Source: an uncultured Erysipelotrichaceae bacterium (GTDB lineage Bacteria > Bacillota_I > Bacilli_A > RF39 > UBA660). From it: 64,000 bases of DNA. The stretch covers positions 64,606 to 128,605 of the forward strand of contig CAUSWF010000002.1 of assembly GCA_963535465.1 (NCBI GenBank), given 5' to 3'. The notes beneath the pieces are model-generated. The model was given only the letters and a program-made list of their open reading frames with translations, made no database searches and was not told the origin of the DNA. Of this stretch, positions 4,664-36,406 are shown one piece after another. Made by a program: the position numbers and the translations under genes. Each line of letters opens with the position of its first letter. Positions within the stretch are counted from its first letter, which is position 1.

Positions 4664-4903
4664 TTACCATTTATTACTAGGACATTTTTCTTCTTTTACA
4701 GAAGTTTTTAAATTGATAAAACATCCACATAGACCACATATTTTTTGATTATCTATTACCTCTAAATATTTACATCTATTACAATACTTTAATCTATTAA
4801 AAGAAAGCTCTTTATTTTTTCCAATAGTATAATTGAATAAACCTTTTATTATATGTTTAATTTTCGTTGGAAAATTCTCCATAATATTTTTTAGCTGCTT
4901 CAT
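4664..4903 (-). CDS. Small Cys-rich (zinc-ribbon-like) protein
   Basis: ORF-track ORF with CNRC...CGLCGC...CPSNKW. Paralogous to 5474..5740. Confidence 0.5.
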   Translation of the reverse strand: MKQLKNIMENFPTKIKHIIKGLFNYTIGKNKELSFNRLKYCNRCKYLEVIDNQKICGLCGCFINLKTSVKEEKCPSNKW

Positions 4904-5480
4904 TCCTAGCTTTAACAGCTTCTTCTAATGTATCATAACGTCCAATATATTTAGTTTTATTATTTAATGTAATTTGGGCAGTCCACTTATTTTTATCTTT
5001 TGAAAAATATACACCTTTATGTCCAGATGTATTATTTTTTGGGACAGTACAATTACATAAATTTTGTTGGTTTGTACAAATTCTTAGATTGCATTTTCTA
5101 TTATCTAACCCATTATGATTGATATGATCTATCAATATTTTTGGATCAGTAATATTTAAAATATACCTATGCAATCTTCTAAATTGTTTATTATTAGAAG
5201 TACAATAATATGTATTTCTTTGCAGATCTGATTTATGCCATCTTATAGCTTTTACTTTTTCTATATCTTCTATATCTATTAAAGCTTTTCCACATATTTC
5301 ATTATCCCTATTTATTAAAAATATTTCAGCATGATCGTCAACTATTTCTATATGGTTTGTTTTATCTTTATACGAATATTTAAAAATTTTTCCGTATCTT
5401 CTTATTTGTGTATAATGTTTAGAACATAATCCATTAGCACAAACTTTTTTACCACATCCTTCAATTTTACATATTACCAT
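4857..5480 (-). CDS. HNH homing endonuclease with C-terminal AP2 DNA-binding domain
   Basis: DHINHNGLDNRKCNLRICTNQQN (HNH) followed by SGHKGVYFSKDKNKWTAQI...GRYDTLEEAVKARNEAAKKYYGEF (AP2). Confidence 0.8.
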   Translation of the reverse strand: MVICKIEGCGKKVCANGLCSKHYTQIRRYGKIFKYSYKDKTNHIEIVDDHAEIFLINRDNEICGKALIDIEDIEKVKAIRWHKSDLQRNTYYCTSNNKQFRRLHRYILNITDPKILIDHINHNGLDNRKCNLRICTNQQNLCNCTVPKNNTSGHKGVYFSKDKNKWTAQITLNNKTKYIGRYDTLEEAVKARNEAAKKYYGEFSNEN

Positions 5481-5740
5481 TGTTCACAAGGGCAAACACT
5501 ATCCCTATTTTTTGTTTTATATTTTAAAACACAGCCGCATCCTTTAAAATAACCATCTTTCTTTTCTAAACTAACATCTTTTGTTTTAGGATTCATATAT
5601 AATTTAGGATTACATATTCCTCCGAACTCATCCTTATATAAAGGACATTTTTTACATATATCTATTCTTATTTTAGATATATCCTTATTAAGACCAAGTA
5701 ATTCATTTACATGACCTTTTATTATATTGCCAACTTCCAT
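5474..5740 (-). CDS. Small Cys-rich (zinc-ribbon-like) protein
   Basis: CKKCPLY...GGIC...GCGCVLKYKTKNRDSVCPCEQW. Paralog of 4664..4903. Confidence 0.5.
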   Translation of the reverse strand: MEVGNIIKGHVNELLGLNKDISKIRIDICKKCPLYKDEFGGICNPKLYMNPKTKDVSLEKKDGYFKGCGCVLKYKTKNRDSVCPCEQW

Positions 5741-5776: not shown

Positions 5777-7693
5777 TTAATATTCTATCGGTTTAAGTTT
5801 GGCTAATTTTTCTTGTTTAAAAACAGACTTTTTATAAAATTTTAGCATTGATTCTACTTCTTTCTTTAAATAAGGTAAATGATAAACTGTTTGATTATCA
5901 TTATGATCAAAGTGTACTAATATTAAATCTTTAATAGTATATTCTGGATTAATTTTTTGTAACATCCATGCATAAGTAGATAACTGTAAAGCATAATGCC
6001 AGTAATTGCAATCTTCCAAAGTGTTCAATGGATACTTCATTTTAACAGAACTACGAGTTTTAGTATCAAAGCCACTATGTTGTTTGATTTCTTTATTAGT
6101 ATTATGTGTAATTATACATTTATTAGTAACTAAAAAAGTATGTAAAGGGCTGTCTACTTCTAAACATTGTGTTGGAATAGTTTCTGTAATTTCTACTTTA
6201 TTAATATTTCTAAATGAATTTTTATCTATTTTTGGAAATTCAATTTCTTGATTTCTTATTAAAAAAGGATTTAATCCATTAGTTGAGAAACATACATCCC
6301 AAGCAATAAATTCTTTACCATTACATTTTTTTATTACTTCAAAAACAGTAGATTTTATACCTAATGTTCCTAATAATTTTACAGTACAATCTCTTTGCCA
6401 TTCTTGGCCCGTAGACATTACAAAACGTTTTCTTTTAGGATGATAATAACCATCAGTATCCATTAATCCTCTTAATAAGTCTAATCTTTGATTAAATGAA
6501 GCTGTATAATACTCTTCTGGAATATGTTTATTTTTTAAAAGATTCATTTTATTTAATAAAGTTCTTAATCCATAAACAGTCCTCATTTCAGTATTTTCTC
6601 TATCAGGATTATGTTGGGCATTTTCCCCTATATCAAAGCCACGATGTTTTAGTTCATCCCATAATTTAGATTGACTTGCTTGCGTAATAATACCACAATC
6701 TTTTGAACCATCACCTAACCAAACTCCTAATAAATAAGGATCTATTAGTAAATCTTTAGTTGGAGTATTAATAGGTTTTGGATTTAGTATTTTAGGAATT
6801 GTATAAGAATTTCTAGTATAAGTTTGCATATAATTATAAAGTTCCTTTGTAGTTATTACTCCTTTAGTATAAGGTGTTTTTTTACTTTGATTTTTAAATG
6901 ATACTTCCCAACGGTGATCTTCATCAGCTACTATAGTGTCTCCGTTATCAAAAGTTATTTTGAAGCATGGATTATTATGTATAGATGATTTATGCAAAAT
7001 TCGTGTAGGATTACCGTCTCCATCAAAAATAACATCCCCTTCTTTTACAGCTCCTATAGTAGTCCATCCAGAATTTGTTAATATTTCTGTGTCTAAAGGT
7101 AATCCTTTCCAATCCATGACTGTTATTTCATTACCTTGTTTAACTAATAAATCAATCTGTCCTGCAATTCTTAGCATGTTATCAGGAGAAGTACGAGAAA
7201 TTAAGTATTCAGGATATACTCCATTTTCTAAATCTAACGCAGTTCTTCCTTTATCGCATATAAATTTACCTCCTACACCAAATTTCTTTAGTGATACATT
7301 AGCACCCATCTTATACATACTTTGCTCTAGATCTGAATGTATTTTAGTACCTCTTTCACAAGATTCTCTATTAGTTTTATCCCATTCATCTAAAATACCT
7401 TGTTGTGCTTTATTAAAATCAAGTTCAGTAATATCATACGTACTTAAAAGTTCTTTAGGTATTTTGTGTGTATTCAACAAAGATTTTCTTTCTATTTTCC
7501 AAGCATCTGAGGGAATTAACTTTTCTAATGCCTTATATCCAGACCAAAAATCTTTATCAAAGGGTTGAGCAAACTTTTCTATTAAAGTTGTTACTGAAAT
7601 AAATCTATCATTTGTATCTGTATTCCAGTATACATGGTCATTTTCACTGAATGCAATGCTTCCATTCTGTTTGTCTATTTTCATATTATTCAT
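5777..7693 (-). CDS. PD-(D/E)XK (RecB/Cas4-like) nuclease interrupted by an intein
   Basis: Extein motifs are ERGTKIHSDLE, GQIDLL...VMDWK|..|TNK (D-x-K-T restored on splicing) and YALQLSTYAWML (QxxxY). Residues 197-531 are intein-like. Confidence 0.8.
   Translation of the reverse strand: MNNMKIDKQNGSIAFSENDHVYWNTDTNDRFISVTTLIEKFAQPFDKDFWSGYKALEKLIPSDAWKIERKSLLNTHKIPKELLSTYDITELDFNKAQQGILDEWDKTNRESCERGTKIHSDLEQSMYKMGANVSLKKFGVGGKFICDKGRTALDLENGVYPEYLISRTSPDNMLRIAGQIDLLVKQGNEITVMDWKGLPLDTEILTNSGWTTIGAVKEGDVIFDGDGNPTRILHKSSIHNNPCFKITFDNGDTIVADEDHRWEVSFKNQSKKTPYTKGVITTKELYNYMQTYTRNSYTIPKILNPKPINTPTKDLLIDPYLLGVWLGDGSKDCGIITQASQSKLWDELKHRGFDIGENAQHNPDRENTEMRTVYGLRTLLNKMNLLKNKHIPEEYYTASFNQRLDLLRGLMDTDGYYHPKRKRFVMSTGQEWQRDCTVKLLGTLGIKSTVFEVIKKCNGKEFIAWDVCFSTNGLNPFLIRNQEIEFPKIDKNSFRNINKVEITETIPTQCLEVDSPLHTFLVTNKCIITHNTNKEIKQHSGFDTKTRSSVKMKYPLNTLEDCNYWHYALQLSTYAWMLQKINPEYTIKDLILVHFDHNDNQTVYHLPYLKKEVESMLKFYKKSVFKQEKLAKLKPIEY
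6101..7105 (-). mobile_element. Intein (335 aa) with LAGLIDADG homing-endonuclease domain; class-3-like WCT signature
   Basis: Block A is GLPLDTEILT (Gly, not Cys/Ser, at position 1). Block B is TIVADEDHRW (W two residues after His). LAGLIDADG motifs are LLGVWLGDGS and LLRGLMDTDGYY. Block F is TQCLEVDSPLHTFLV (Cys where Asp is usual). Block G is IITHN followed by Thr+1. Confidence 0.75.
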
Positions 7694-8378
7694 TTACATA
7701 TTTTTTTATATTATTATAATCTAGTATTGCTGCTAACTTAGAAATTTCTGGACCTATAACTACTGGATAATAAGGCATCTTATACTCTTTCTTCTTTTTA
7801 TAAAGTATTATTATTAATCCAATAGGACTATTACTTCCTGCTATAGGATAAAAAGCAGCAGCTCTAGCATTACTTGCTAAAAGTTTATTGTAAAATTTTG
7901 GCATAGAATATTTAATAGAATCTATATTATTTACTCTTAATAGAGAGTAATTATTTATTTTCTATAACTCATCTATATAATAAACATATTCAAGTTCATG
8001 CCATTCTCTTTTTGTTTCTTGCGAATCTATGCCTCTAGTCTTCTCAGTAAGGCAATTTAAATACTAGTAACTAAAACCTTGTAAACTTCTAGTTGAATTA
8101 TGATAACTTAAAAGTATTACATTTGTAGCATCAGGATCTTTATCAAGTATTGCCTAAACACTTCTATCTATTTCTGGAGCCATTTTAAGAGTATACTTTT
8201 CAGCTTCCTACTTATCATTCTCCATAGATTCAGCCCATTGTTTAATGCTGTTTTTGTTTTCAGAAATTATATAATTTCCGAGGCACCATCCTAATAATCC
8301 AATTATAATTACAGTTTTTGTTTGTGTGCCCAAACTATCTAAAAATTCCCAAATCTTTTTTATTAATTTTAATTTCAT
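7686..8378 (-). CDS. Membrane-anchored hypothetical protein (230 aa), recoded
   Basis: ATG 8378-8376. N-terminal TM segment TVIIIGLLGWCLGNYII. Five in-frame TAGs join it to track ORF 7686..7904. Confidence 0.55.
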
Positions 8379-15780: not shown

Positions 15781-15782
15781 AG

Positions 15783-15870
15783 TTGCCTCGCTAGGATTCG
15801 AACCCAGATTGACGCCCTCAGAAGGCTACAGATTTAGAGTCTGCCGTAATAACCATTATACTACAAGGCA
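15783..15870 (-). tRNA. Suppressor tRNA, anticodon CUA (reads TAG), 88 nt with long variable arm (type II architecture)
   Basis: Reverse complement: TGCCTTG TA GTATAATGGTTATTAC G GCAGA CTCTAAA TCTGT AGCCTTCTGAGGGCGTCAAT CTGGG TTCGAAT CCTAG CGAGGCA A. It has a 7-bp acceptor stem (U1-A72), a 7-nt loop with C34 U35 A36, and A73. Confidence 0.85.
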
Positions 15871-15876
15871 TTAAAG

Positions 15877-15948
15877 TTATCCCACTAGGATTCGAACCCA
15901 GACTAAGAGGGTTAGAGCCTCCTGTGCTAGCCGTTACACCATAGGACA
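15877..15948 (-). tRNA. Suppressor tRNA, anticodon CUA (reads TAG), 72 nt, tRNA-Gln-like
   Basis: Reverse complement: TGTCCTA TG GTGTAACGGCTAGCAC A GGAGG CTCTAAC CCTCT TAGT CTGGG TTCGAAT CCTAG TGGGATA A. U1-A72 is present, and the D arm is nearly identical to the phage tRNA-Gln(UUG) at 31788..31858. Confidence 0.85.
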
Positions 15949-25013: not shown

Positions 25014-25086
25014 GGGGCAATAGCAAAGCTGGTCAATGCGTTGGACTGAAAATCCAAAGATAATGGTTCGATTCCATTTTGTCCCA
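25014..25086 (+). tRNA. tRNA-Phe (GAA)
   Basis: Acceptor GGGGCAA/TTGTCCC. Anticodon arm TTGGA CTGAAAA TCCAA. T arm AATGG TTCGATT CCATT. Confidence 0.85.
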
Positions 25087-25094
25087 CTACAAAT

Positions 25095-25166
25095 CGCGAG
25101 GTAGAGCAGTGGTAGCTTATTAGGCTCATAACCTAATGGTCGCAGGTTCGATTCCTGCCTTCGCAA
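25095..25166 (+). tRNA. tRNA-Met (CAU), initiator-like
   Basis: Anticodon loop CTCATAA. C1 opposite A72 (unpaired first position), A11:U24, and two of the three G-C pairs of the initiator anticodon stem. Confidence 0.8.
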
Positions 25167-25172
25167 CATATT

Positions 25173-25259
25173 GGAGAGTTGGCTGAGTGGCTTAAAGCGC
25201 TGGTCTTGAAAACCAGAGGGCGGTAAAACGCTCCAAGAGTTCGAATCTCTTACTCTCCT
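25173..25259 (+). tRNA. tRNA-Ser (UGA), long variable arm
   Basis: Acceptor GGAGAGT/ACTCTCC. Anticodon arm CTGGT CTTGAAA ACCAG. Variable arm AGGGCGGTAAAACGCTCC. T arm AAGAG TTCGAAT CTCTT. Confidence 0.85.
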
Positions 25260-25267
25260 CTTATATT

Positions 25268-25353
25268 GGAGATTTAAGCCTAATTGGTAAGGCAGCAGTT
25301 TGCTAAACTGCCAGTAATCGTAGTAATATGATGTATAGGTCCTATAATCTCCA
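25268..25353 (+). tRNA. Aberrant tRNA-like element (Ser-GCU-like) lacking a canonical T arm
   Basis: Perfect acceptor GGAGATT/AATCTCC. D arm GCC TAATTGGTAA GGC. Anticodon arm GCAGT TTGCTAA ACTGC. Extra arm ATCGTA-GTAA-TATGAT. The T arm is replaced by the mini-hairpin tATAGGTCCTATa. Confidence 0.45.
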
Positions 25354-25375
25354 CAATTAATTTAAATAAAAGATT

Positions 25376-25585
25376 ATGAAAAAATTTAATAATCATTTGT
25401 TACCAAATGGTTTATGGTATTTAGTACAAGCATACCTTATTAGTACAGAATGGCAATGGTATAAGGATAATAATATTAAATATGAATCTGCTACAAAATT
25501 AACTGCTGGGCAATTATCTAATTTAGTTGCTAATGCTATTAGTTGGAGTGTAAAACGTATTCAATATAATACTGAAAATACTTAA
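25376..25585 (+). CDS. Small hypothetical protein, paralog of 27967..28194
   Basis: MKKFNNHLLPNGLWY...WQWYKDNN versus MKKFKGHVLPDDLFY...WQWFKDNN. Confidence 0.5.
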   Translation: MKKFNNHLLPNGLWYLVQAYLISTEWQWYKDNNIKYESATKLTAGQLSNLVANAISWSVKRIQYNTENT

Positions 25586-25635
25586 AAGATAAATAAAAAT
25601 CTACAGGCAATAATAATTTAATTAAAGCCTATTAT

Positions 25636-25706
25636 GCTCTTGTCGTCTAATGGTAGGACATGAGACTTTCTATCGTAGAATTACGGTTCGAATCCGTGCT
25701 TGAGTA
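25636..25706 (+). tRNA. Degenerate tRNA-Glu (UUC)-like, possibly a pseudo-tRNA
   Basis: The D arm TCGTCTAATGGTAGGAC and T arm are as in the Glu tRNA at 30128. The acceptor stem has two T-T mismatches, the anticodon stem has an A-G mismatch, and position 37 is T. Confidence 0.45.
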
Positions 25707-25943
25707 CAATTATTAGTTCTTACATAATAATTACGTCATTGTATTGTCGGGTATAAAAATACAACGGTAATAGATATTCCGTAAATATATCTAAGTACAA
25801 GCAGTAGTACTAGTTAGTAATTCATAAGTAAGACATTGATTACTAAAACTGAAAACAGTTATATCTATTATAATTGCAAATATAGTATTTATAATTACAG
25901 TAAGTTTGTTATACTCTAATGTGGGTTTTGAACTTACTAAATT

Positions 25944-26010
25944 GGAGTACCAAGGCTGGAGAATCTCCCTTGCATGGAGATTGTGGGGAGTTCGATTCTC
26001 TTTACCTCCA
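25944..26010 (+). tRNA. Aberrant 67-nt tRNA-like element (Ala-UGC-like) without a normal D arm
   Basis: Anticodon hairpin (AA)TCTCC CTTGCAT GGAGA(TT). T arm GGGAG TTCGATT CTCTT. The acceptor pairs only with a bulge (GGAGTA / TACCTCC). Confidence 0.35.
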
Positions 26011-26118
26011 CATTTCTAACATGATATCGGGACAAAGCGTTGTCCAATCTAGCAGAATATAAATACATCATTTTTAAACAAGTAGTAAGTTATTGTGAAA
26101 TAATTTACTATATTTGCT

Positions 26119-26177
26119 TAGGTAGTCAACGACAGCAGGCTTGCCCCGAAAGGTTCATAGGTCCTATCCTAAGCGCA
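26119..26177 (+). ncRNA. 59-nt structured element sharing the ATAGGTCCTAT module
   Basis: A 7-bp closing stem (gcttagg/cctaagc) encloses gtcaacgac, a cccc-gaaa-gg hairpin, and cATAGGTCCTATc placed directly 5' of the closing strand, as in 25268..25353. Confidence 0.35.
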
Positions 26178-26359
26178 TTTACTAATTAAACATTTTATAA
26201 ACATTAAAAAAGAAATATATTAAACCAGAAATCAAAACAATTAAAATAGATAATGAACCTTGTATGAATAATACAAGCCAACATAAAGAAGGATCTTCAT
26301 GGGTATGTCCATGTGATAAAGACTCTGTTACTATAGAAAATTTAATAAATAAATAAATA

Positions 26360-27232
26360 ATGGAAAATAAAGTATTTTTTGGAGAAAGTGGTTTAACTTC
26401 TACAAGTGCAAATCATGTAGCAAACCTTGCTAAAGAGTTCATTAGTTCAAATGAAAACTATCTTAATAGCATTTCTTTCATTAATTGTAAAGTAGGACTT
26501 ATCGGTAGTGATAAAGATCAAACTTACAGTTTAGGTGTACAAAATTTAAATGATATTGAAGTTATATTAGCAGATATTGCTAAATGTAAAGCATTGATTG
26601 CTTGGTTACGTGAGGCTATTAAAGCTAAGAATGCTTTAATTTCAGATATTAATAATTTTAATATTTCAAGTTATTGTCAACTTAAAGGACTACCTAATCC
26701 TGAACGTCCTCAACTTCCAGATTATTTAACAGCTGAAGAATATTATGATTCTCTTCCTATTAAAGAAAGAAATGAATATTATTCTTTGGAAGCAGAAGCA
26801 GCAACTTTAGGTCAGTTTATTCATCCTGGAGGTAATCTTAATCAGCAACGTAGTTTGTTATCTGAGAAATTAATGCACCCAATTAAATCTGAGGGAGAAG
26901 GAAGGGATACCATATTGTATAAGTATAGTCCTTCTATTAGTTTAGAAGAAGTGGATAGTACTTTCTTTAAGCTGCAGGCTAAACATAGAGAAATTCAAGC
27001 CAGATTAAATGGGATGAAGCATCTTTGTGAAATAGCTATGCAGCAAGACCGATTGCAAAAGGATAATACTTATAAGGCAGCTGATAATACATATTTTACA
27101 AAAATGCATGAACTTGCAAACGAAGTTAATATCTATAAAGACGAAGAACTTACAAGAATTCAGAATCTTAAGATTGTTATTCCAAATTCTCTAGAAAGTA
27201 TTTATAAAAAGATACAATCATTGGGTAAATAA
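26360..27232 (+). CDS. Hypothetical protein (290 aa)
   Basis: ORF-track ORF, no motif recognised. Confidence 0.55.
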   Translation: MENKVFFGESGLTSTSANHVANLAKEFISSNENYLNSISFINCKVGLIGSDKDQTYSLGVQNLNDIEVILADIAKCKALIAWLREAIKAKNALISDINNFNISSYCQLKGLPNPERPQLPDYLTAEEYYDSLPIKERNEYYSLEAEAATLGQFIHPGGNLNQQRSLLSEKLMHPIKSEGEGRDTILYKYSPSISLEEVDSTFFKLQAKHREIQARLNGMKHLCEIAMQQDRLQKDNTYKAADNTYFTKMHELANEVNIYKDEELTRIQNLKIVIPNSLESIYKKIQSLGK

Positions 27233-27577
27233 GAACTTAGAGGCTTGACCTCTTAATCTTATTGAATATGTTTAATAGATGTCATTTATCTATGAATAAA
27301 ATTATTGCTAATTTAGTAATAATATTTTAAGTTTGTAACTTAAAATTGAATGTATACTCTTTCAAAACTTATATTTAAAAGTAATCTGAACAATTACTGC
27401 TTTTGTTTTCGAAGAAAGAGTATGTTCTTGATATTGATTTTATTTTAGTTTTAGTTGGCATTTATTAAACATAACTCAATATTTTAAATATGTTTTTAAA
27501 TTTATTAATTATTATAATATTAGTATTAATTTTTGAATTATTACTTAATATTATTAAAATAATAGCTAAAATTTATC

Positions 27578-27784
27578 TTGATGAAATACGTAATTTGTAA
27601 TTATAATAATTATTCAGTAATTGAAATAATCGAATCTGATAACTTTATAAAAGTTGAAGAAAGATTAAAACAATTAAATAAAGGTTATAATAACGAATTA
27701 ATTATAATATCCTTACATAGGTATAATAAACTTATTAAAGGATTAGTATCAAAAATAAATAGAATTAAAAATATGTTAATGTAA
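27578..27784 (+). CDS. Hypothetical protein (68 aa)
   Basis: ORF-track ORF. Confidence 0.4.
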   Translation: MMKYVICNYNNYSVIEIIESDNFIKVEERLKQLNKGYNNELIIISLHRYNKLIKGLVSKINRIKNMLM

Positions 27785-27859
27785 AAATATGTGGAGAGGA
27801 GCAATGTTCTACTGTGGAGATGATAATGCATTCCTAGAATTATTCAACCCTTTCCCTAT

Positions 27860-27932
27860 GCTCATATAGCTCAGTTGGTAGAGCACTGGTCTCCAAAACC
27901 AGGTGTCCCCGGTTCGATTCCTACTGTGAGTG
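27860..27932 (+). tRNA. tRNA-Trp (CCA) with poorly paired T stem
   Basis: Acceptor GCTCATA/TGTGAGT. D arm GCTC AGTTGGTA GAGC. Anticodon arm CTGGT CTCCAAA ACCAG. The T arm CCCGG TTCGATT CCTAC pairs at only 2 of 5 positions. Confidence 0.6.
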
Positions 27933-27966
27933 CATTTTAATAAATTAATTAATTAATTAAATAATT

Positions 27967-28194
27967 ATGAAAAAGTTTAAAGGACACGTATTACCAGATG
28001 ATTTATTTTATATGATTGTATCATATAGTGAAAAAACTAAATGGCAATGGTTTAAAGATAATAATTTAACTATTCCTGAAGATTTTGGTTTTTCATTAGT
28101 TAAGAAAATATCTAAAGAACAATTGAATGATTTAATTAATTATGCTGTTAAATATAATATAGATAACATTAAATATGAAACTGAAGACTATTAA
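27967..28194 (+). CDS. Small hypothetical protein, paralog of 25376..25585
   Basis: ORF-track ORF. It follows a tRNA, as its paralog does. Confidence 0.5.
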   Translation: MKKFKGHVLPDDLFYMIVSYSEKTKWQWFKDNNLTIPEDFGFSLVKKISKEQLNDLINYAVKYNIDNIKYETEDY

Positions 28195-28558
28195 AAAATA
28201 TTTATTTAACGAAATTAATTTACTTACAGATAAAAAATGTAAGCCAGCACAAAATAGTAATTTATTGTTAATGTTCAGTGAACATAAAAAATATAGAAAA
28301 CCGTTCAACGGTTTAAATTTTTATAGAAAAAGATGTAATTTTTATGATACATCTGAAGCTTGTGAACTAATGGCTGAACATTTTTGGGAATTTGAAAAAT
28401 ATGAATGGTTTCAATTAATGATATTAATTAATGAATTACCCCTTGAATATTCTGGAGTTCCATTTAAATTAAAAGCTTATGCCAACGCATATTGTGATTG
28501 GTTTAAAAGAAATTTACCTGAATTATGGGAAGATTATAAAGAAGCACATAGAGAATAA
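28175..28558 (+). CDS. Hypothetical protein
   Basis: ORF-track ORF. Confidence 0.5.
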   Translation: MKLKTIKKYLFNEINLLTDKKCKPAQNSNLLLMFSEHKKYRKPFNGLNFYRKRCNFYDTSEACELMAEHFWEFEKYEWFQLMILINELPLEYSGVPFKLKAYANAYCDWFKRNLPELWEDYKEAHRE

Positions 28559-28562
28559 AAAT

Positions 28563-28751
28563 ATGAAAATAAAATATACAGAATATTTAGATGTCCCAGG
28601 ATTATTTGAAAACAATAATACCATAGATGATATTATAGCAGACCTTCAAAATTTGAAAGAAGCACATCCTGATACATCACATATAGATTTTATTTATGAT
28701 GATGGTTATGACTATAAATCTTCATTTGTCCAAATTAATTATTATATATAA
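28563..28751 (+). CDS. Hypothetical protein
   Basis: In-frame ATG 28563 within track ORF 28479..28751. This start avoids the overlap with the upstream gene. Confidence 0.45.
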   Translation: MKIKYTEYLDVPGLFENNNTIDDIIADLQNLKEAHPDTSHIDFIYDDGYDYKSSFVQINYYI

Positions 28752-28766
28752 TAAAAATTTTTAATT

Positions 28767-29540
28767 ATGAATCTTTTTAAAAAGAAAAAATATAAAATTC
28801 TAAAAGATGATTTTAGAATAATTGATGGTATTAAAGTTTATAGAATACAAGCTTTAAAATCATTTGCTAATGTAAAGAAAGGCGATTTAGGAGGATTTAT
28901 ACAATCTGAAGAAAATCTTTCACAACAAAATACTTGTTGGATATATGATGTAGCTATAGTTAAAGATGAAGTTAAAGTTCTAGACGATGCTAAAGTTTTT
29001 TCAAATTCTATATTAAGAGGTGTATTTACAGTAGAAGATGCTTGTAGTATTGTTGATTCCACTATTAAAGTTAAATTATGTGGTAGTATAAAAGATGGTA
29101 TACATCTTTGCGAAACTAATATAGATTCATATACTATGACACTTAAGACTGGAGTATTAAATAATAATGATATATATGCTACCAATTTAACAGTAATCGA
29201 CTCTTCTTTAAAATATGTAACTTGCAATGAAAGTAATTTATATTTTAATAATAGTTATTTATATGATGTAAAAATTAATAATTCTGTAACTTTAAATCAA
29301 GTAATGGCAAAACAAACTGAAATATCTTCAAATTCTGATATTTTTGTTTTTTTAAATAATTGGTCTAGCTTACGTTATTTTAATTACGTAGTTCCTAATA
29401 AGACTTGGTATGTTGGCTGTTTTATAGGTTCAGGAGAAGAACTTATTAAAAAAGCTTATAAAGACAGTGAATTATCTGGAAAAATGTATGAGAAATATGT
29501 TAAGTTTATAGAAAAACTAAATGAAGATAAGAACCCTTAG
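28767..29540 (+). CDS. Hypothetical protein (257 aa), repetitive beta-rich sequence
   Basis: ORF-track ORF. It ends in TAG (29538-40). Confidence 0.5.
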   Translation: MNLFKKKKYKILKDDFRIIDGIKVYRIQALKSFANVKKGDLGGFIQSEENLSQQNTCWIYDVAIVKDEVKVLDDAKVFSNSILRGVFTVEDACSIVDSTIKVKLCGSIKDGIHLCETNIDSYTMTLKTGVLNNNDIYATNLTVIDSSLKYVTCNESNLYFNNSYLYDVKINNSVTLNQVMAKQTEISSNSDIFVFLNNWSSLRYFNYVVPNKTWYVGCFIGSGEELIKKAYKDSELSGKMYEKYVKFIEKLNEDKNP

Positions 29541-29580
29541 AAAACGTCTTTTCTATAATTATTCTTTTTAAATAAAAAAT

Positions 29581-29718
29581 ATGGAAAAAATAATTCATCT
29601 ATATATAATTAATGAATGTGGTAAGAAATGCCCAATGTGTTGTAATAAGTTTTATAATATGGTTAAACTCCCCAGGGACTACAACCGGAATATTTCCGGA
29701 CACGGTCGCTTAGTGTGA
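29581..29718 (+). pseudogene. Truncated ORF with a CxxxCxxC (radical-SAM-like) N-terminus running into structured non-coding sequence
   Basis: MEKIIHLYIINECGKKCPMCCNKFYNM.... From about 29662 the reading frame enters G+C-richer hairpin sequence and stops at 29716-18. Confidence 0.3.
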
Positions 29719-30127
29719 ACGACAGCACGTTTAATATTTTGCAGTGTGAAGAATGAGTGATTTAATTAACCTTTCTAAGTTGAGGATATAATTTAGTTGC
29801 TCGAATACCCAGAGAACGCGTAAAACAGGGACTTTTGTATAGTTAAGTATAAAAACTATATAAGCAATATTGTATTTGCTATTAGCAATATTGTGATTAC
29901 TCTACCTACTGAGTAAGGGTCTATGTAATTATAGGCTAGGAGTGTAGGGAATAGTGGGTACAGCCTAAATTACATTATAGGAACTTCTGTACGGCGAAAC
30001 TAGAGGATGATTACTATGGATATGCGATTACATATCTAATCTGGTTGAATATTAATGTTAGTAGAGCATATATTAATTCTTTAAAAGAACAGCTACCTCT
30101 ACTTAGGATTAATCCTGTTCTTTATTT
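29662..30127 (+). ncRNA. About 470-nt structured non-coding RNA candidate abutting tRNA-Glu
   Basis: No ORF of 60 aa or more on either strand between 29541 and 30304. Hairpins include ccggaa-tat-ttccgg (29685-99), gtcg..cgac (29705-23), a roughly 60-nt imperfect hairpin at 29921-29980, and a duplicated AGCAATATTGT. Confidence 0.45.
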
Positions 30128-30199
30128 AGCCTCATCGTCTAACGGTCAGGACATAAGGTTTTCATCCTTGTAATTGGAGTTCGATTTTCCATGAGATTA
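30128..30199 (+). tRNA. tRNA-Glu (UUC)
   Basis: D arm TCGTCTAACGGTCAGGAC. Anticodon arm TAAGG TTTTCAT CCTTG. T arm TGGAG TTCGATT TTCCA. Acceptor AGCCTCA/TGAGATT has one C-A mismatch. Confidence 0.7.
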
Positions 30200-30304
30200 C
30201 TTAATTTAAAATAAAAAATTATAGCAGCAGCTGATAAAATTTACTGTAAATATTACAGTGATTATTACACATTTAAAAAATGGATAGAAAAATACAGACC
30301 AAGT

Positions 30305-30511
30305 TTGTTAGAAATTTTTGCTTTGTATGATTCGCAACAATGGGAAGATATAATTGAAAATAGTCACGATGAAGACCTTTTTGTATGTTATTTTCCTTAT
30401 TACTTAACTAAATGGCTTCTTTGGCGATGTCCTGTTAGTATCATTAGAGAAGAATTAGAAGAAAGAGGATATGAAACAAAATGGTATCATAAATTGTTTT
30501 TTAAGTATTAA
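30305..30511 (+). CDS. Hypothetical protein
   Basis: ORF-track ORF with a TTG start. The frame is open upstream to 30219 without an ATG. Confidence 0.4.
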   Translation: MLEIFALYDSQQWEDIIENSHDEDLFVCYFPYYLTKWLLWRCPVSIIREELEERGYETKWYHKLFFKY

Positions 30512-30514
30512 ACT

Positions 30515-30847
30515 ATGAATAAAGATGAATTATTTAAATTAAACTCAGAAATAACTGATTTAGAAATAAAATTAGCTAAATTAAAGAGTAAGAGGAAACA
30601 ACTACAAAATAATATAGACTGTTTAATCGGAAGCTATCTTACTAGAGGTAAGTTTTATTATAAAATACTATCTATAAATAAAGAGAAACAAACAATAGAA
30701 GCTTTATGTATAAATTACGAAGACGAAGAATATAGTATCTCTTTTCTTCCAGCTTTAAATTTTGAATATATTAATGGTTTAGCTTTAATGTCTTCAAAAG
30801 TATTTGAAAAACTGTATAAAGAAGTAATGGAAAAAATATCTAAATAA
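30515..30847 (+). CDS. Hypothetical protein
   Basis: ORF-track ORF. Confidence 0.5.
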   Translation: MNKDELFKLNSEITDLEIKLAKLKSKRKQLQNNIDCLIGSYLTRGKFYYKILSINKEKQTIEALCINYEDEEYSISFLPALNFEYINGLALMSSKVFEKLYKEVMEKISK

Positions 30848-30849
30848 TT

Positions 30850-31099
30850 ATGTTAGTATTTTTAATTTATATATTAGGAAATATTATTGCTTTCTTTTTA
30901 TCTTTACATGTACTTTATTATTATAGTAAAAATAATAGTTATATGGTAAAACACCAAAGAAGATTTTTTTGAAGAAGAAAGTCCGTTTATTATATTTGCA
31001 TTTATATTTTCTTGGGTTGGAGTACTTGGGTGCTTAATGTGTTATATTGGTATTTTATTTAATAAATTTATAAATTATTTATCTAATAAATGGTTTTAA
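30850..31099 (+). pseudogene. Small multi-TM protein gene split by a T7 homopolymer
   Basis: ATG 30850 gives MLVFLIYILGNIIAFFLSLHV...RRFF, with TGA at 30970. The +1 frame from 30971 continues as EEESPFIIFAFIFSWVGVLGCLMCYIGILF...KWF and has no start codon. Confidence 0.35.
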
Positions 31100-31782
31100 T
31101 GAATAAAGGAACTATTACTAAATTTAAGAATTGGATTTTAGAAAATTCAAATCTTAAGCTTTTAGAGAGTAAATCTACTGAAAGTATATATCTTACAAAT
31201 GATTCTTTAAAAATTAGAATTTCTGACCATATACAGGGTTCAGATCGTTCTAATATTCGATTTGATATAAGTATATTTATTCCAGAAGAAAGTAAACAAT
31301 ATATAGTTTCTATTGGATATAAAATTTATATTTATAATACTTTACTCGAAGTAAAGAATTTGTTAATATCTGTATTTAGAATTAACTTAGGAATTGACAC
31401 TACTACTATTAATAAAGCTGTAAATAAACAAAAAGAAGCAAATAAAGAAATTAACAGTGCATTATCGCAACAAATAGCTAATTTATCTAAGAAAAATAAT
31501 AAGTATAAAGTAAGACTAGCTAAGCTTAGTGAAAAAGCAACTAAATATGATAAACTAACGAAAGTTCATAATAAAAAATTAAAAGAGTACCAAAAGCTAC
31601 AAGCAAAATGTGGTTCTTTTATGAATGATATTTCGAAAGCTAAAGATATAATATCTGAATTGCAAAATAATCCCGATGCTAGAAAAGCTATTCAAATCTC
31701 TGATAAAACTTATTATATTGATAATTTTCCTAAGGATATACAAGACTTATTAAAAGAATCAATTCAGTATTATAACCAATAA
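31090..31782 (+). CDS. Hypothetical coiled-coil protein
   Basis: ORF-track ORF. Confidence 0.5.
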   Translation: MVLMNKGTITKFKNWILENSNLKLLESKSTESIYLTNDSLKIRISDHIQGSDRSNIRFDISIFIPEESKQYIVSIGYKIYIYNTLLEVKNLLISVFRINLGIDTTTINKAVNKQKEANKEINSALSQQIANLSKKNNKYKVRLAKLSEKATKYDKLTKVHNKKLKEYQKLQAKCGSFMNDISKAKDIISELQNNPDARKAIQISDKTYYIDNFPKDIQDLLKESIQYYNQ

Positions 31783-31787
31783 AAGTT

Positions 31788-31858
31788 TGGGATATGGTGT
31801 AATGGTAACACAGCGGGTTTTGATCCCACTATTCCTGGTTCGAATCCGGATATCCCAA
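31788..31858 (+). tRNA. tRNA-Gln (UUG)
   Basis: Acceptor TGGGATA/TATCCCA (U1-A72). D arm GGTGTAATGGTAACAC. Anticodon loop TTTTGAT. T arm CCTGG TTCGAAT CCGGA. Confidence 0.8.
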
Positions 31859-32018
31859 CAAAATAATTTACTAATTAAATTAAAAAATTATGAGTAAGAA
31901 AAATTTTGTAAATCTTATGCAAAAAAAGCATAAGGAGTTTGTTCAGTTTGCTAATGCAACTAACTATTATAAAAAACATAATATTGAAAATTTTTTAACT
32001 AAAGAATACGAATAAATT

Positions 32019-32498
32019 ATGGAAACAAGAGAATTAGTAATTACTATCCCAGAAGGATATGAAATTGATAAAGAAAATTCAACTTTCGAATGTATTAAGT
32101 TTAAAAAGAAAGTTAAGAAAATAGATACTTGGGATGATTTAGATAATATTTCTGGATATATGATAAATAATATGTCAGAAATTATTACTATACCTGTAAT
32201 TTCTGCAGAAGATATGGATAAAAATGTATTTATATCTGAAAAATATGCAAAAGCAGCATTAGCTTTAGCTCAAATCTCTCAGCTTATGCCTTATTATGGT
32301 GGTGAGATAACTGAAGAAGAGTGGAAAAATGTTAGGCTGAAAAAGTATGGAGTGTTATTGTACAATAGTAAAATAGCAACAAACATCTACTATGATACAA
32401 AACAAATGATTGGTTTCCATACAGAAGAACAGTTAAATAGATTTCTATATTTCCCAGAGAATATACAACTCGTAAAGGACTTATACATGGTAGGTTAA
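32019..32498 (+). CDS. Hypothetical protein
   Basis: ORF-track ORF. Confidence 0.5.
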   Translation: METRELVITIPEGYEIDKENSTFECIKFKKKVKKIDTWDDLDNISGYMINNMSEIITIPVISAEDMDKNVFISEKYAKAALALAQISQLMPYYGGEITEEEWKNVRLKKYGVLLYNSKIATNIYYDTKQMIGFHTEEQLNRFLYFPENIQLVKDLYMVG

Positions 32499-32583
32499 AA
32501 TAAAATAAAACAAAAATGTTGTAGGGATTTTGTACCTAAAGGGTTTTATTGAGGGTTAATAGATTACCTACTTTTTAAATATT

Positions 32584-33132
32584 ATGGATAATTTAGAAAA
32601 TTATTGTAAATTCCACAAAAAAATTTATTTTATAGATACTAATGGAGTTATTTACAAATACATTTATAATAGAAATACTTTTATAAAATTAACTCATTGG
32701 TCTATGGGTGAGGATCGTAGAATTTCTATTGAATATTTATCTAAAAAATATACTAATAAAGAATTAAAAATCCTTACTTCACAAAAAGCTAATGAATTAA
32801 CTAACCAATATTGGAATAATCTTACCAGAGAATGGGAATATGATGGGAGAAAATATAAAGTATTATCTATAAAAGATGCACTTACTCAAAATATTGACCC
32901 TGAAGATGATGGTAAATTACATATTTTTCCTGAAGAGTATTTTAGATATTATGTCGGTTTATATCGAAATAGAATAATTTGGTATACTTATACTTCTTAT
33001 AATTGTTCTTGTTTAATATTTAAATTTGCAGATATAAATAAACAACCATCAGTACTTAATGATTTTTGTGGATATATTAGTAGGAAAGGTATTCAACCTA
33101 TCTTAGACTGTGAAACTAATGAATTTATTTAA
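32584..33132 (+). CDS. Hypothetical protein
   Basis: ORF-track ORF. Confidence 0.5.
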   Translation: MDNLENYCKFHKKIYFIDTNGVIYKYIYNRNTFIKLTHWSMGEDRRISIEYLSKKYTNKELKILTSQKANELTNQYWNNLTREWEYDGRKYKVLSIKDALTQNIDPEDDGKLHIFPEEYFRYYVGLYRNRIIWYTYTSYNCSCLIFKFADINKQPSVLNDFCGYISRKGIQPILDCETNEFI

Positions 33133-33423
33133 AATATAATTATATAATGGACTGATTGTTTATGTTCGTTCAGTTTAAAAGAAGGATACAATATGTTGAA
33201 AACAACGGGAAAGCAATGTAAGTAATGAAGGCTTCGACACCGAACCAACTATATAATTTTAATTATGGGAAAACTTTTAAATCAATTAAAAAATTATTTC
33301 GAAAATACTCCTAAAGAAGTATTAGAGAAAGAAGCAAAAAAATTAGACTATCTCAATAAAATAGGTCCAGATGTTTTAGAGTATGCTAAAATAGTTAGAG
33401 GATATTAAATTTAATATATAAAA

Positions 33424-33612
33424 ATGAATACAATACAAGCTATATTGGTTATTCCAATAATATTTCTTGGATGGGTTTATTTTGCAGCTATTACTTCTTT
33501 GTGGCAAGATTATGTTAAAATAAATAATGTGGTTATTAATAGTTTATTATACCTATCATGTATGGCTATATCTACTATTCCATTTATACATTTACTAAAA
33601 TTAATTTATTAA
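33424..33612 (+). CDS. Small membrane protein
   Basis: ORF-track ORF with two hydrophobic segments. Confidence 0.45.
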   Translation: MNTIQAILVIPIIFLGWVYFAAITSLWQDYVKINNVVINSLLYLSCMAISTIPFIHLLKLIY

Positions 33613-33616
33613 AAAT

Positions 33617-34684
33617 ATGAAAAAATTTATTATTTTTATGATGGCTACTATGTTTAGCCTCATCACCAATGCTCAAACAGCATTACAAACAACTAAAGTA
33701 CTTGATAATACCTATATTGGTATTAATGGCGGTGTTACTACTCCTATGAGTTTAGATAAAGCACTTCCACTTAATCCAACTTTTGGTATTCGAGTAGGCA
33801 AGGACTTTACTCCAGTTATTGGTATAAATGTAGAAGGAACTACATGGTTTGGTTCTAATTTTGATCTTAAAATTGGTAAGAATATGTTTAGAGCAGTTAA
33901 TGTAGGTGTAAATCCAACTATTAACTTAACTAATCTATTTAAAGGTTATAATGGATCTCCTCGTAAGTTAGAATTTATAACTGTAACAGGTCTTGGTTGG
34001 TTGCATAACTTTGGAAATTCCAATAATTATCTTACATCTAAGATGGCTATAGATATGGTATGGAATCCATGCTCATTCTTAAGTTTTTATATAGAACCTG
34101 GAGTATTTTGGAATCTTAATCAAGGAAAGAATCAATTAACAAAAGTTTCTGGATTCTATGATAAACCTATGAATACTATGCCTTATGTAATTCAAGATAT
34201 TACACAATATAATAAAGTACAATTTACTAAAAACGGTGCTCAGTTATTTGTAAATGTAGGTATTACTTATAAATTTAAGACATCTAATGGAACTCATAAT
34301 TTTAAATTGTATAATATTGGTGATTTAAATAATGAAATTAATTCTCTTAGAAATGAACTTAATAAGAAACCTACAGAGATAATTAAAACAAAAACTAATA
34401 CTGTTGTTAATAATGTAGGTACTTATGTAATATTCTTTGCACAAGGTAGTTCTGAACTTTCTAATGATGCTTTACGTACTCTTGATAAAGTTAAAGGAGA
34501 TGTTATAGTTGAAGGTTTCGCTTCTCCAGAAGGATCTGCTGAGTTTAATCAAACTCTATCTGAAGAACGTGCTAAAATAGTTACTACATTCTTAAAATTA
34601 AAGAAAGTAAATGTTATTGAATCTGTTGGAAGAGGTGCTACAAGTAATACTTCTAATAGAGTAGTAATTGTTACTAATAAATAA
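33617..34684 (+). CDS. OmpA-family outer-membrane protein (signal peptide, beta-barrel-like N-domain, OmpA_C domain)
   Basis: MKKFIIFMMATMFSLITNAQT is a signal peptide. The C-terminus FAQGSSELSNDAL...VEGFASPEGSAEFNQTLSEERAKIV matches the OmpA C-terminal peptidoglycan-binding pattern. Confidence 0.7.
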   Translation: MKKFIIFMMATMFSLITNAQTALQTTKVLDNTYIGINGGVTTPMSLDKALPLNPTFGIRVGKDFTPVIGINVEGTTWFGSNFDLKIGKNMFRAVNVGVNPTINLTNLFKGYNGSPRKLEFITVTGLGWLHNFGNSNNYLTSKMAIDMVWNPCSFLSFYIEPGVFWNLNQGKNQLTKVSGFYDKPMNTMPYVIQDITQYNKVQFTKNGAQLFVNVGITYKFKTSNGTHNFKLYNIGDLNNEINSLRNELNKKPTEIIKTKTNTVVNNVGTYVIFFAQGSSELSNDALRTLDKVKGDVIVEGFASPEGSAEFNQTLSEERAKIVTTFLKLKKVNVIESVGRGATSNTSNRVVIVTNK

Positions 34685-34694
34685 TATTAAAAAA

Positions 34695-35159
34695 ATGAAG
34701 AATCTAATTTTATTTTTAATCTGTACTTTATTTTGTTTAACTTCATGTAAAGAACATTTTTCTGATGGAGAAAGAGTTGGCGTAGTAACTAAGTTTTCTA
34801 AAGCTGGAGTAGTTTGGGATTCTTGGGATGGACATCTTAATATTACTCAAACAGGAATGAACTCAGCTGGTGAACCTTTTGCTTTTTCATTAGATAATGA
34901 TAGAAACGATCAAGATTCTATTGTAGAGTTACTTACTGAAGCACAGCTTAAAGGTTGGAAAGTTAAACTTTTATATCATCAAGTTTGGGGTTTTAAGAAT
35001 GTTTTTCATAATAGAGGTGAATCTGATTACTTTGTTGATGGTGTAGAAATACTTGATAAGAATTTTTCAAAACCTTTAGAAATTATAAATAATAATAATA
35101 AAACTAAAGGAAGTGTTATTGATACTATTTACGTAGTTATTGATAAAAATAAACAATAA
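34695..35159 (+). CDS. Lipoprotein
   Basis: ATG 34695 gives MKNLILFLICTLFCLTSCKE, with lipobox LTSC. Confidence 0.6.
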   Translation: MKNLILFLICTLFCLTSCKEHFSDGERVGVVTKFSKAGVVWDSWDGHLNITQTGMNSAGEPFAFSLDNDRNDQDSIVELLTEAQLKGWKVKLLYHQVWGFKNVFHNRGESDYFVDGVEILDKNFSKPLEIINNNNKTKGSVIDTIYVVIDKNKQ

Positions 35160-35201
35160 AAGTAGCTGAGTCTTATTAGTTCCTCATTCAAAGAACTATA
35201 A

Positions 35202-35275
35202 CTCTCCTTAGCTCAACTGCAAAGAGCAACTTTCTTCTAAAAAGTGGGTTACAAGTTGGAATCTTGTAGGAGAGA
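35202..35275 (+). tRNA. tRNA-Arg (UCU)
   Basis: Perfect acceptor CTCTCCT/AGGAGAG. D arm GCTC AACTGCAAA GAGC. Anticodon arm ACTTT CTTCTAA AAAGT. T arm ACAAG TTGGAAT CTTGT. Confidence 0.8.
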
Positions 35276-35512
35276 CTAATTAGTACTTTATTTAATATGT
35301 TTAATATATTATTTTTTTATATTCTGTTATTTCTTTGTAGGATTTATATTGTCTCTTCCTTATATATACCTTACTGATAAATATTGTAAACTAAGTAAAT
35401 ATCGTATAGAAAATTTACCTTCATTTTTACTTATTTTATTTATCTGGCCCATATGTTGGACATTTATTCCTGTAATTATATTATTAATAATTCAACATAA
35501 AATTAAAAATTC

Positions 35513-35725
35513 ATGACATTTGGAGATTTTAAAAACGAAATAACTAGAGTAATTGAAAATAGACCTAAAAATTGGAGAAAAGGTCAAACTGTATTTAATT
35601 ATATTGAATCGAAATATGATGTTGCAAGAAGTGTGCAATATAGTGATAAAATTGATTGTTTTTATGATGATTCTAAAATTGAAGAATTTATAAAAGCAGC
35701 ATATAAAAGAATTATTAATTCTTAA
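35513..35725 (+). CDS. Hypothetical protein
   Basis: ORF-track ORF. Confidence 0.45.
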   Translation: MTFGDFKNEITRVIENRPKNWRKGQTVFNYIESKYDVARSVQYSDKIDCFYDDSKIEEFIKAAYKRIINS

Positions 35726-35739
35726 AACTATTAAAGCTT

Positions 35740-35923
35740 TTGACTATATTGAAGTCTGTTAGCAATAACAGTTATAATTTAGTAAAGAGGTTAAGACTTT
35801 CTGATGTGTAGAAAGTTTGGAGCCAACCTTATTATGGGTGAGGACTCTATTCCCATATTTTACATCTTTAGTAAGATTGTATTTCAAGATTAGCTATTCG
35901 AGAAAGTATTGCATATCTTGCGT
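35740..35923 (+). ncRNA. Structured non-coding region upstream of the tmRNA
   Basis: Hairpins ctgtta-gcaa-taacag and actttct-gatgtgt-agaaagt, nested in ggtt..aacc. No ORF. It ends at a terminator. Confidence 0.3.
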
Positions 35924-35950
35924 ATAGGTGGAAATATTCCACCTATTTTT
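35924..35950 (+). terminator. Intrinsic terminator
   Basis: ataggtgg-aaatatt-ccacctat, followed by TTTTT. Confidence 0.65.
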
Positions 35951-35954
35951 ATTT

Positions 35955-36273: not shown

Positions 36274-36374
36274 CTTTAGTTGGCTACTGACTACAAAATA
36301 GTAGATGACTTCTAGGGCCGTTCAACATGTAAACAACCTAGGTAATGGCATACCTGTTAAAATCAAAGCATGCT

Positions 36375-36406
36375 AAGGGTACTCATAAGAGTGCCCTTTA
36401 TTTTTT
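36375..36406 (+). terminator. Intrinsic terminator downstream of tmRNA
   Basis: aagggtactc-ataa-gagtgccctt, followed by a T-run. Confidence 0.7.

Follow-up and report, generated by a model that had tools for sequence, protein, structure and literature searches.

What is the long in-frame insert that interrupts the catalytic motif of a nuclease gene in a gut phage, and how did it come to lie there? This question is raised by a 64,000-nucleotide stretch of contig CAUSWF010000002.1 (assembly GCA_963535465.1, deposited as an uncultured Erysipelotrichaceae bacterium; positions 64,606 to 128,605 of the forward strand), hereafter referred to as the window, in which ORF (open reading frame) listing and translation gave a single frame of 638 codons spanning both nuclease and insert (5777..7693, minus strand; TAA stop, no in-frame TAG). 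Coordinates given below are window positions, and residue numbers refer to the 638-amino-acid (aa) precursor. We consider it very likely that this gene codes for a nuclease of the RecB/Cas4-like PD-(D/E)XK type, belonging to a crAss-like gut phage, and that a mobile class 3 intein equipped with a LAGLIDADG homing endonuclease has invaded it between Lys196 and the adjacent Thr of catalytic motif III (D-W-K|T). The comparisons that follow establish the exact boundaries of the insert, its homology to class 3 inteins, a fully conserved signature, the existence of empty-site alleles, and the horizontal exchange of the insert. An earlier note on this DNA had read the locus as a class 3 LAGLIDADG intein in the PD-(D/E)XK motif of a crAss-like phage, which is supported, and had deemed the host protein and the insertion site unusual, which is not.

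The insert covers residues 197-531 (335 aa; 6101..7105, minus strand) and consists of a HINT splicing domain into which a LAGLIDADG homing endonuclease is inserted, as delimited by a 1005-bp indel and by matches to the PDB and to known folds. All residues singled out in the earlier note were located at the codons claimed for them on the minus strand, namely Gly197 (GGA, 7105-7103), His260 (6916-6914), Trp262 (6910-6908), Cys510 (TGT, 6166-6164), Thr529 (6109-6107), Asn531 (AAT, 6103-6101), and Thr532, i.e., Thr+1 (ACT, 6100-6098). Likewise, deleting residues 197-531 in silico produced the predicted junction ...ITVMDWK|TNKEIK.... No second copy of this intein was found in the window.

Naturally intein-free alleles confirmed this junction. 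Searching with the spliced extein gave thousands of homologues of ~300 aa, and the 120 listed ones were aligned to the precursor; every one of these was empty in the intein columns and joined at D-[W/Y/F]-K|[T/S]-N. The best intein-free match by BLASTP with the in-silico spliced extein, P0121 (303 aa, 96% identical), reads ...ITVMDWKTNREIK... across the site. It is encoded by four metagenomic contigs (L003-L006) that match the window at 90-94% DNA identity on either side of the gene and lack exactly positions 7105..6101, a clean 1005-bp indel. The empty-site DNA of L005 reads ...GATTGGAAA|ACAAATCGA..., and a synthetic empty site would read ...GATTGGAAA|ACTAATAAA.... Because shifting either junction by one residue fails to regenerate the empty-site sequence, Gly1 is unambiguous as the first intein residue, and the insert begins with Gly (GGA), not Cys or Ser, at a boundary set by the intein-free alleles themselves. 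The 60 nt on the 5' side of the insertion point are identical between L003-L006 and the window. On the 3' side, three of the first 9 nt (6092..6100) differ, with ACA AAT CGA in L003-L006 versus ACT AAT AAA in the window (K534R), which may reflect a co-conversion tract or target-site variation. A systematic "immune" change of the target site in intein-free alleles was considered and rejected: the +3 residue is Lys in 116 of the 120, so the K-to-R change of L003-L006 is not general.

Comparison with solved structures assigned the insert to class 3. The best matches in the PDB sequence search were the class 3 DnaB-1 mini-inteins 6bs8 (Mycobacterium smegmatis, Msm) and 6rix/6riy (E = 4e-16 to 3e-15), the latter being replicative DNA helicase entries labelled MchDnaB-1 in the fold search, and the next intein followed at E = 0.003. 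The alignment to Msm DnaB-1 starts at position 2 of both sequences, places HRW on HQW and TQC510LEVDSPLHTF on VRC118VEVDNPEHLY, and ends with THN on THN; W262, C510, and N531 are thereby aligned with Trp67, Cys118, and Asn139. In Msm DnaB-1, His65, Trp67, Cys118, and Asn139 are named B:10, B:12, F:4, and G:7 (PMC5222942). Since this naming and the alignment agree, the block assignments proposed earlier are correct. The alignment to 6bs8 and 6rix covers blocks A/B and F/G, in support of the insert being an intein.

Specifically, block A (GLPLDTEILTNSG; 7067..7105, minus strand, as are all the blocks) opens with Gly1, i.e., residue 197, and aligns from position 2 with ALALDTPLPTPSG of Msm DnaB-1. 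Block B (GDTIVADEDHRWEV; 6902..6943) contains His B:10 (H260) and Trp B:12 (W262), and aligns with ...ADAQHQW (His65/Trp67). Block F (PTQCLEVDSPLHTFLV; 6128..6175), with Cys F:4 (C510) as the predicted branch nucleophile, aligns with VPVRC118VEVDNPEHLYL. Block G (KCIITHN|T; 6098..6121) holds Thr G:5 (T529), His G:6 (H530), Asn G:7 (N531), and Thr+1 (T532), as supported by conservation in homologues. Between them lie the two expected LAGLIDADG motifs, LGVWLGDG from residue 322 and LRGLMDTDG from residue 407: the first forms block C (YLLGVWLGDGS, acidic residue D328; 6704..6736), in a region whose fold matches I-DmoI and PI-SceI, and the second forms block E (LDLLRGLMDTDGY, acidic residue D414; 6446..6484), in the stretch matched by Pfam LAGLIDADG_3 (residues 403-456). 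The class 3 signature is therefore complete, with a non-nucleophilic residue 1, Trp B:12, Cys F:4, Thr G:5 (together, WCT), and Thr+1, in a protein homologous to experimentally proven class 3 inteins.

This signature is conserved at two scales. Among 120 intein-bearing homologues that are 60-100% identical overall, Gly1, His260, Trp262, Cys510, Thr529, His530, Asn531, and Asp328 are invariant, and Thr+1 is found in 119 of them, as is Asp414. When the intein alone served as the query of an exhaustive HMMER search, 17,120 protein clusters matched at E <= 0.001; judged on sequence similarity, the resemblance of the insert to inteins is not due to chance. From the best 150 proteins of that search we extracted 178 intein segments as a more distant set, in which Trp B:12 was found in 173, Cys F:4 in 176, Thr G:5 in 173, and Asn G:7 in 175. 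The residue preceding the intein was Lys in 138 of the 178 segments and the +1 residue was mostly Thr (132) or Ser (39), followed by Cys (5), so that the junction chemistry is common to the relatives. Class 3 inteins have been described as a monophyletic lineage, and, by similarity, the closest named phage relatives and best solved-structure matches of this intein are all class 3. Many long proteins (1100-1900 aa) among the relatives P0256-P0390 carry two to six class 3 intein copies, at sites after GK, GE, AK, and similar, which shows that multiply invaded hosts occur among them.

Structural modelling pointed in the same direction. The AlphaFold (AF2) model of the precursor had a mean predicted local distance difference test score (pLDDT) of 82.6, with low confidence only at the junctions and in a few loops. 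The whole model matched the two-domain LAGLIDADG inteins PI-SceI, TliVMA, PhoVMA, and PI-PfuI (E = 1e-17 to 1e-9), and its HINT part matched the class 3 DnaB-1 structures 6riy, 6bs8, and 6rix with a target-normalised template modelling score (TM-score) of ~0.8. The endonuclease part had fold matches to I-DmoI and PI-SceI, and the acidic residues of both motifs are conserved.

The interrupted protein is itself recognizable. The N-extein (residues 1-196; 7106..7693, minus strand, as are the other extein features) matches PHROG 298, "exonuclease", over residues 8-196, and matches to terminase, primase, and helicase-loader PHROGs are confined to the intein part. It contains a candidate motif I region, RGTKIHSDLE (7325..7354), motif II, GQID181LL (7145..7162), and motif III, D194-W-K196 (7106..7114). 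The C-extein (residues 532-638; 5780..6100) starts with T-N-K and contains the RecB-family QxxxY motif Q570-L-S-T-Y574 (5972..5986), in which Q570 and Y574 are invariant; D181, D194, and K196 are invariant in 240 homologues. That the insert splits motif III (D-x-K|T) of a PD-(D/E)XK nuclease, as had been claimed, is borne out by Pfam PDDEXK_1, which scores the precursor at 18.6 bits (cut-off 22) and the in-silico spliced protein at 27.5 bits. In the AF2 model of the intein-free P0121 (pLDDT 90.4), D181 lies on strand E175-186 and D194/K196 on the adjacent strand E189-196, and the extein model had fold matches to MGME1, Cas4 SSO0001, the putative exonuclease 3l0a, AddAB, RecB, and RecE. With motifs II, III, and QxxxY on a conserved alpha/beta core, the host protein belongs to the RecB/Cas4-like branch of the PD-(D/E)XK nucleases. 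By eye, no obvious Cas4-type four-cysteine Fe-S pattern was seen in the extein, for which no systematic search was made. Since the intein separates K196 of motif III from T532, the active site should form only after splicing.

Two homologues deserve mention in this context. The intein-free P0122 (437 aa, from an ENA contig of 13.6 kb) has its ~135-residue nuclease core duplicated in tandem (IGGKFECIKD...MTVYHLP twice), which could be an assembly artefact or a real duplication. The intein-bearing P0043 is named [quoted passage not shown] at JGI, which looks like a mis-annotation of a nuclease-plus-intein gene. Because the precursor fails the Pfam threshold and one homologue received the name of a transthyretin-family hydrolase, genes of this kind are mis-annotated or unannotated.

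Next we compared the insert and the exteins across related metagenomic contigs. One of these contigs, L013 (positions 685-2589 of SRR27142839_88), is 95.6% identical to the window in DNA over a length of 8.4 kb, a figure that rises to 98-100% across most of both exteins. Its intein DNA is 50-83% identical to that of the window when scored in 60-nt steps, and the intein proteins are ~60% identical: this is a second intein lineage (331 aa), also Gly1/WCT/THN|T and at the same site. A third lineage is represented by P0081, with 46% intein identity and 84% extein identity. Among the 120 intein-bearing homologues, 28 pairs combined an extein identity above 90% with an intein identity below 70%, and 55 pairs combined an extein identity below 70% with an intein identity above 90%, some of 99-100%. 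Some identical inteins sit in exteins that share no more than 54-59% identity, implying that they were actively transferred not long ago. By extein similarity, intein-bearing and intein-free alleles interleave, and near-identical phage backgrounds carry either no intein, the window intein, or a ~60%-identical one. Endonuclease-driven homing, with the insert repeatedly invading, being lost, and being replaced, would be expected to leave this mobility pattern, which lends indirect support to the predicted cleavage of intein-free alleles by the endonuclease. Between the window and L013, 17 codon differences in the exteins are synonymous and 3 nonsynonymous; such mostly synonymous change indicates that the interrupted gene is under purifying selection, which argues that the intein splices. 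A local three-codon difference also occurs within these otherwise near-identical exteins: at residues 60-62 (region 7514..7516) the window reads I-P-S (ATT CCC TCA), and the database representative P0001, P0011/L013, and P0121 read M-S-P (ATG TCT CCT in L013).

The class 3 reading leads to a specific model of how the nuclease would be restored. After translation, Cys510 would attack the Lys196-Gly197 peptide bond, giving the block F thioester branched intermediate, from which the N-extein would move to the Thr532 hydroxyl, yielding the branched intermediate of block G. Cyclisation of Asn531 would then free the intein, and an O-to-N acyl shift would restore D-W-K-T and an active nuclease. The endonuclease of the freed intein would cut intein-free alleles of co-infecting phages, and recombinational repair would copy the intein into them.

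Several points weigh against this reading. Splicing, a branched intermediate at block F, and cleavage by the endonuclease are predictions from the sequence; the predicted precursor is of low confidence at both junctions; and Pfam LAGLIDADG_3 scored 22.2 bits, marginally below its cut-off of 22.5. The remaining points concern the first residue. In the literature we found no characterised class 3 intein that begins with Gly, those that we could check starting with Pro (MP-Be DnaB), Ala (Msm DnaB-1, Mch DnaB-1, and AceL NrdHF), or Ser (Catera). The mutation A1G abolished splicing of AceL NrdHF, which its authors blame on lost strain at the scissile bond. Furthermore, the sole Gly1 intein that we found named in the literature, Arsp-FB24, is a pseudogene that fails to splice and in which both His B:10 and Cys F:4 are gone.

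Published frequencies of residue 1 in class 3 inteins were not found in the literature and were therefore tabulated here from the 178 distant segments. Gly proved to be the commonest first residue (119 of 178). The best-matching segments are located at (D/E)xK sites in 116 cases, 111 of them with Gly1, and segments at other sites start mostly with Ala or Pro; Gly1 is not rare at this type of site. Five aligned class 3 inteins of cultured phages, three of them in terminases, all start with Ala. Given the complete and conserved catalytic set, Gly1 is most likely simply compatible with class 3 chemistry, as far as these alignments can tell. Since Gly at position 1 inactivates AceL NrdHF, a large clade in which it is invariant may strain or activate the scissile bond differently. 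It is possible, if unlikely, that the Gly1-invariant inteins at nuclease motif III form a mechanistic sub-variant of class 3, in which the Lys-Gly bond is strained or activated in another way or splicing depends on some condition, e.g., the Cys F:4 redox state. If true, redox-coupled splicing would lead to conditional activation of the nuclease in an anaerobic host.

A related proposal, to which we give little credence, is that a splicing intein has been co-opted as a conditional switch, e.g., with oxidation of Cys510 blocking splicing, an effect reported for Msm DnaB-1, and nuclease activation tied to the anaerobic state of the host. Msm DnaB-1 is described as an oxidative-stress sensor (PMC6195587), the intein sits in the active site, so that the unspliced protein should be inactive, and the intein allele is very widespread. 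However, its sporadic presence, the empty sites, the swaps between lineages, and the conserved endonuclease residues form the pattern of a selfish homing element and not of a fixed regulator.

The first residue also bears on whether a functional intein might splice off the class 3 route, with Thr+1 attacking the N-terminal amide directly (class 2-like) or with another first nucleophile. Gly1 rules out class 1 chemistry, yet alone it is no proof that Cys F:4 is used, and the inactivation of another class 3 intein by A1G hints that Gly1 inteins may treat the N-scissile bond differently. We regard such a route as very unlikely, for two reasons. According to the literature, every class 2 intein is an orthologue of KlbA and has Ala1, Ser G:6, and Cys+1, whereas here G:6 is His and +1 is Thr; and Cys F:4, Trp B:12, and Thr G:5 are invariant in the 120 homologues, near-invariant in the 178 segments, and aligned with the proven residues of Msm DnaB-1.

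It is just as improbable that the intein is dead or decaying, a non-splicing pseudogene like Arsp-FB24 (Arth_1007) in an inactive or dispensable nuclease. The precedent of that Gly1 intein speaks for such a fate, as do the intein-free alleles, which show that the phage can exist without the insert. However, Arsp-FB24 lost His B:10 and Cys F:4, whereas here the catalytic residues are all intact and invariant across the 120 homologues; the ORF is open, the extein changes are mostly synonymous, and identical inteins in divergent exteins imply recent active transfer. Finally, group I introns with endonuclease ORFs are numerous in large crAss-like genomes (Yutin et al.), but we can practically dismiss the idea that the insert is no intein at all and instead a free-standing LAGLIDADG gene inserted in frame, or an ORF encoded by an intron, which is either cut out of the RNA or tolerated as an extra domain, given that the endonuclease is flanked by HINT blocks A, B, F, and G with matches to intein structures, that the insert is exactly in frame and ends in His-Asn|Thr, and that Rfam at gathering thresholds found zero introns in the window.

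Having retained the class 3 intein, we asked how it relates to known systems. Relatives were gathered by protein searches because megablast of window positions 4000-10000 against GenBank phages gave zero matches. The tblastn search against GenBank phages gave 789 records, headed by MT835539, an unannotated gut-phage scaffold with 56% identity over the full length; beyond it, the best matches were cluster C1 mycobacteriophages, over query residues 171-533. Among them, Catera gp206 reads ...GRVDFIVHHPNGQVIPVELK|SLACSTPILT...VPVRCITV...GFVPTHN|TQNS..., with boundaries confirmed by its published intein coordinates (117445-118437). This class 3 intein lies at the same (D/E)xK|T motif position (VELK|S...THN|T) of a RecB/Cas4-like nuclease, and PMC3196547 (citing Tori & Perler 2011, whose conclusions are also relayed in PMC4031507) reports that it splices efficiently. 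Kelley et al. (2016) listed 40 "Cas4 RecB-like exonuclease" inteins in C1 mycobacteriophages, with one insertion point in the PD-(D/E)XK motif. A 2025 survey counted 138 inteins in actinophage Cas4 exonucleases, found class 3 LAGLIDADG inteins almost entirely in Cas4 and TerL exteins, placed one Cas4 site at EFK|T in RecB motif III, and argued that the Cas4 inteins arose from terminase P-loop inteins by "extein switching". Class 3 inteins are therefore already known in this type of host protein and at this insertion site, contrary to what had been supposed, and the large (Zeta) crAss-like genomes were likewise already known to be dense in inteins. New are the crAss-like lineage of the host, the invariance of Gly1, and the mobility seen at the population level.

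The intein shares with MP-Catera gp206 and the actinophage Cas4 inteins the WCT residues, the THN|T end, and the embedded LAGLIDADG endonuclease. With Catera gp206 it also shares a length of ~330 aa, 32% identity over the whole intein, and insertion after the motif III Lys (VELK|...|TQ in Catera, MDWK|...|TN here). In contrast, residue 1 is Ser in Catera and Gly here, and the Catera host is a GC-rich actinophage, whereas the host here is a crAss-like gut phage of 28% GC. The exteins of the two are alike only over a motif region of ~28 residues (hhalign probability 0.3%); this points to the same superfamily motif site, with orthology not demonstrated. Full-length homology of the Catera and crAss-like exteins was accordingly rejected, the hhalign match being limited to those ~28 residues and the Catera extein scoring 17.9 bits, below the Pfam cut-off. 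The three best matches of the Catera intein are at (D/E)xK sites (46-49% identity), and its further matches show no separation by site.

Other class 3 inteins resemble it in part. Msm DnaB-1 and Mch DnaB-1 (6bs8, 6rix, 6riy) agree with it residue for residue in blocks A, B, F, and G, including His, Trp, Cys, and Asn, but they are mini-inteins without an endonuclease that start with Ala1, lie after the P-loop GK of a bacterial helicase, and precede Ser+1. The class 3 prototype, MP-Be DnaB, likewise has a non-nucleophilic residue 1, WCT, and Thr+1 and is a LAGLIDADG intein of ~340 aa in a phage gene; unlike the present intein, it has Pro1 and a helicase host, and the mechanism proven there is a prediction here. 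The P-loop inteins of terminase large subunits (Vibrio phage 489E54-1, Escherichia phage kvi, and Salmonella phage 66FD) are 25-32% identical to it over the full length and share HxW, C, THN|T/S, and the K|T/S junction chemistry, but they have Ala1 and lie at the ATPase GK|T/S rather than the (D/E)xK|T of a nuclease. AceL NrdHF, which comes from a phage-like contig in a metagenome, has the class 3 mechanism, but it is split, has Ala1 and a variant WCT, and is inactive as A1G, whereas here Gly1 is the conserved natural state. PI-SceI, TliVMA, and PI-PfuI share the two-domain architecture but are class 1 inteins (Cys1, no WCT) of other host proteins.

The finding leaves the current understanding of inteins unchanged. 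With it, the range of class 3 inteins at RecB motif III reaches beyond actinobacteriophages to crAss-like gut phages of low GC, and the allele family proves very large in metagenomes (17,120 clusters overall). The related metagenomic contigs offer a population for the study of homing, with empty sites, at least two intein lineages in near-identical backgrounds, and identical inteins in divergent nucleases. Moreover, the inactive AceL NrdHF A1G can be set usefully against a class 3 intein that has a K|T junction and naturally conserves Gly1, both for chemistry and for engineering.

As for the phage itself, the window has a GC content of 28% and encodes replication genes (helicases, primase, exonucleases, and NrdD); the contigs related to it have lengths of 150-195 kb. 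The primase, the sole gene compared in this way, had 128 GenBank phage matches with 34-60% identity, to crAss-like phages of Bacteroides, Flavobacterium, and Cellulophaga or to unclassified gut phages. With all of its homologues being Crassvirales or unclassified gut phages, the phage is probably crAss-like, as proposed earlier. Within the crAss-like phages, the Zeta group of large genomes is unusually rich in introns and inteins (Yutin et al.). A tRNA scan identified two adjacent tRNA genes with anticodon CUA (89 nt and 73 nt; 15782..15948, minus strand); judged by its length, the 89-nt one may have a long variable arm. The next gene upstream of the nuclease (7686..8378, minus strand) contains four in-frame TAG codons (8210-8208, 8156-8154, 8066-8064, and 7964-7962) and no other internal stops. 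Amber-suppressor tRNAs together with in-frame TAGs fit the large recoded crAss-like groups. At one of the TAG positions of this upstream gene, L003 has Trp instead, and an extra TAG of L003 stands where the window has Gln.

A further mobile gene may lie close by. Two genes downstream of the intein, a segment at 4686..5531 contains a 207-aa homing-endonuclease gene with HNH/AP2 domains and a small Cys-rich ORF (ORFs 4857..5480 and 4664..4903, both minus strand). The segment is present in the window, L004, L005, and L013 and absent from L003 and L006, which have ~36 bp in place of ~846 bp, and it looks like a second, free-standing mobile endonuclease polymorphism. Four 207-aa ORFs of the window were considered as repeated homing-endonuclease genes, an idea that was rejected as they are mutually unrelated. 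The window also encodes a phage transfer-messenger RNA (tmRNA; 35955..36276, plus strand) with the tag peptide AKVIPMNSFAVRIAA, detected by ARAGORN and by Rfam RF00023 (72.8 bits, gathering score 47), and located inside a region of scattered tRNA genes (25014..37922).

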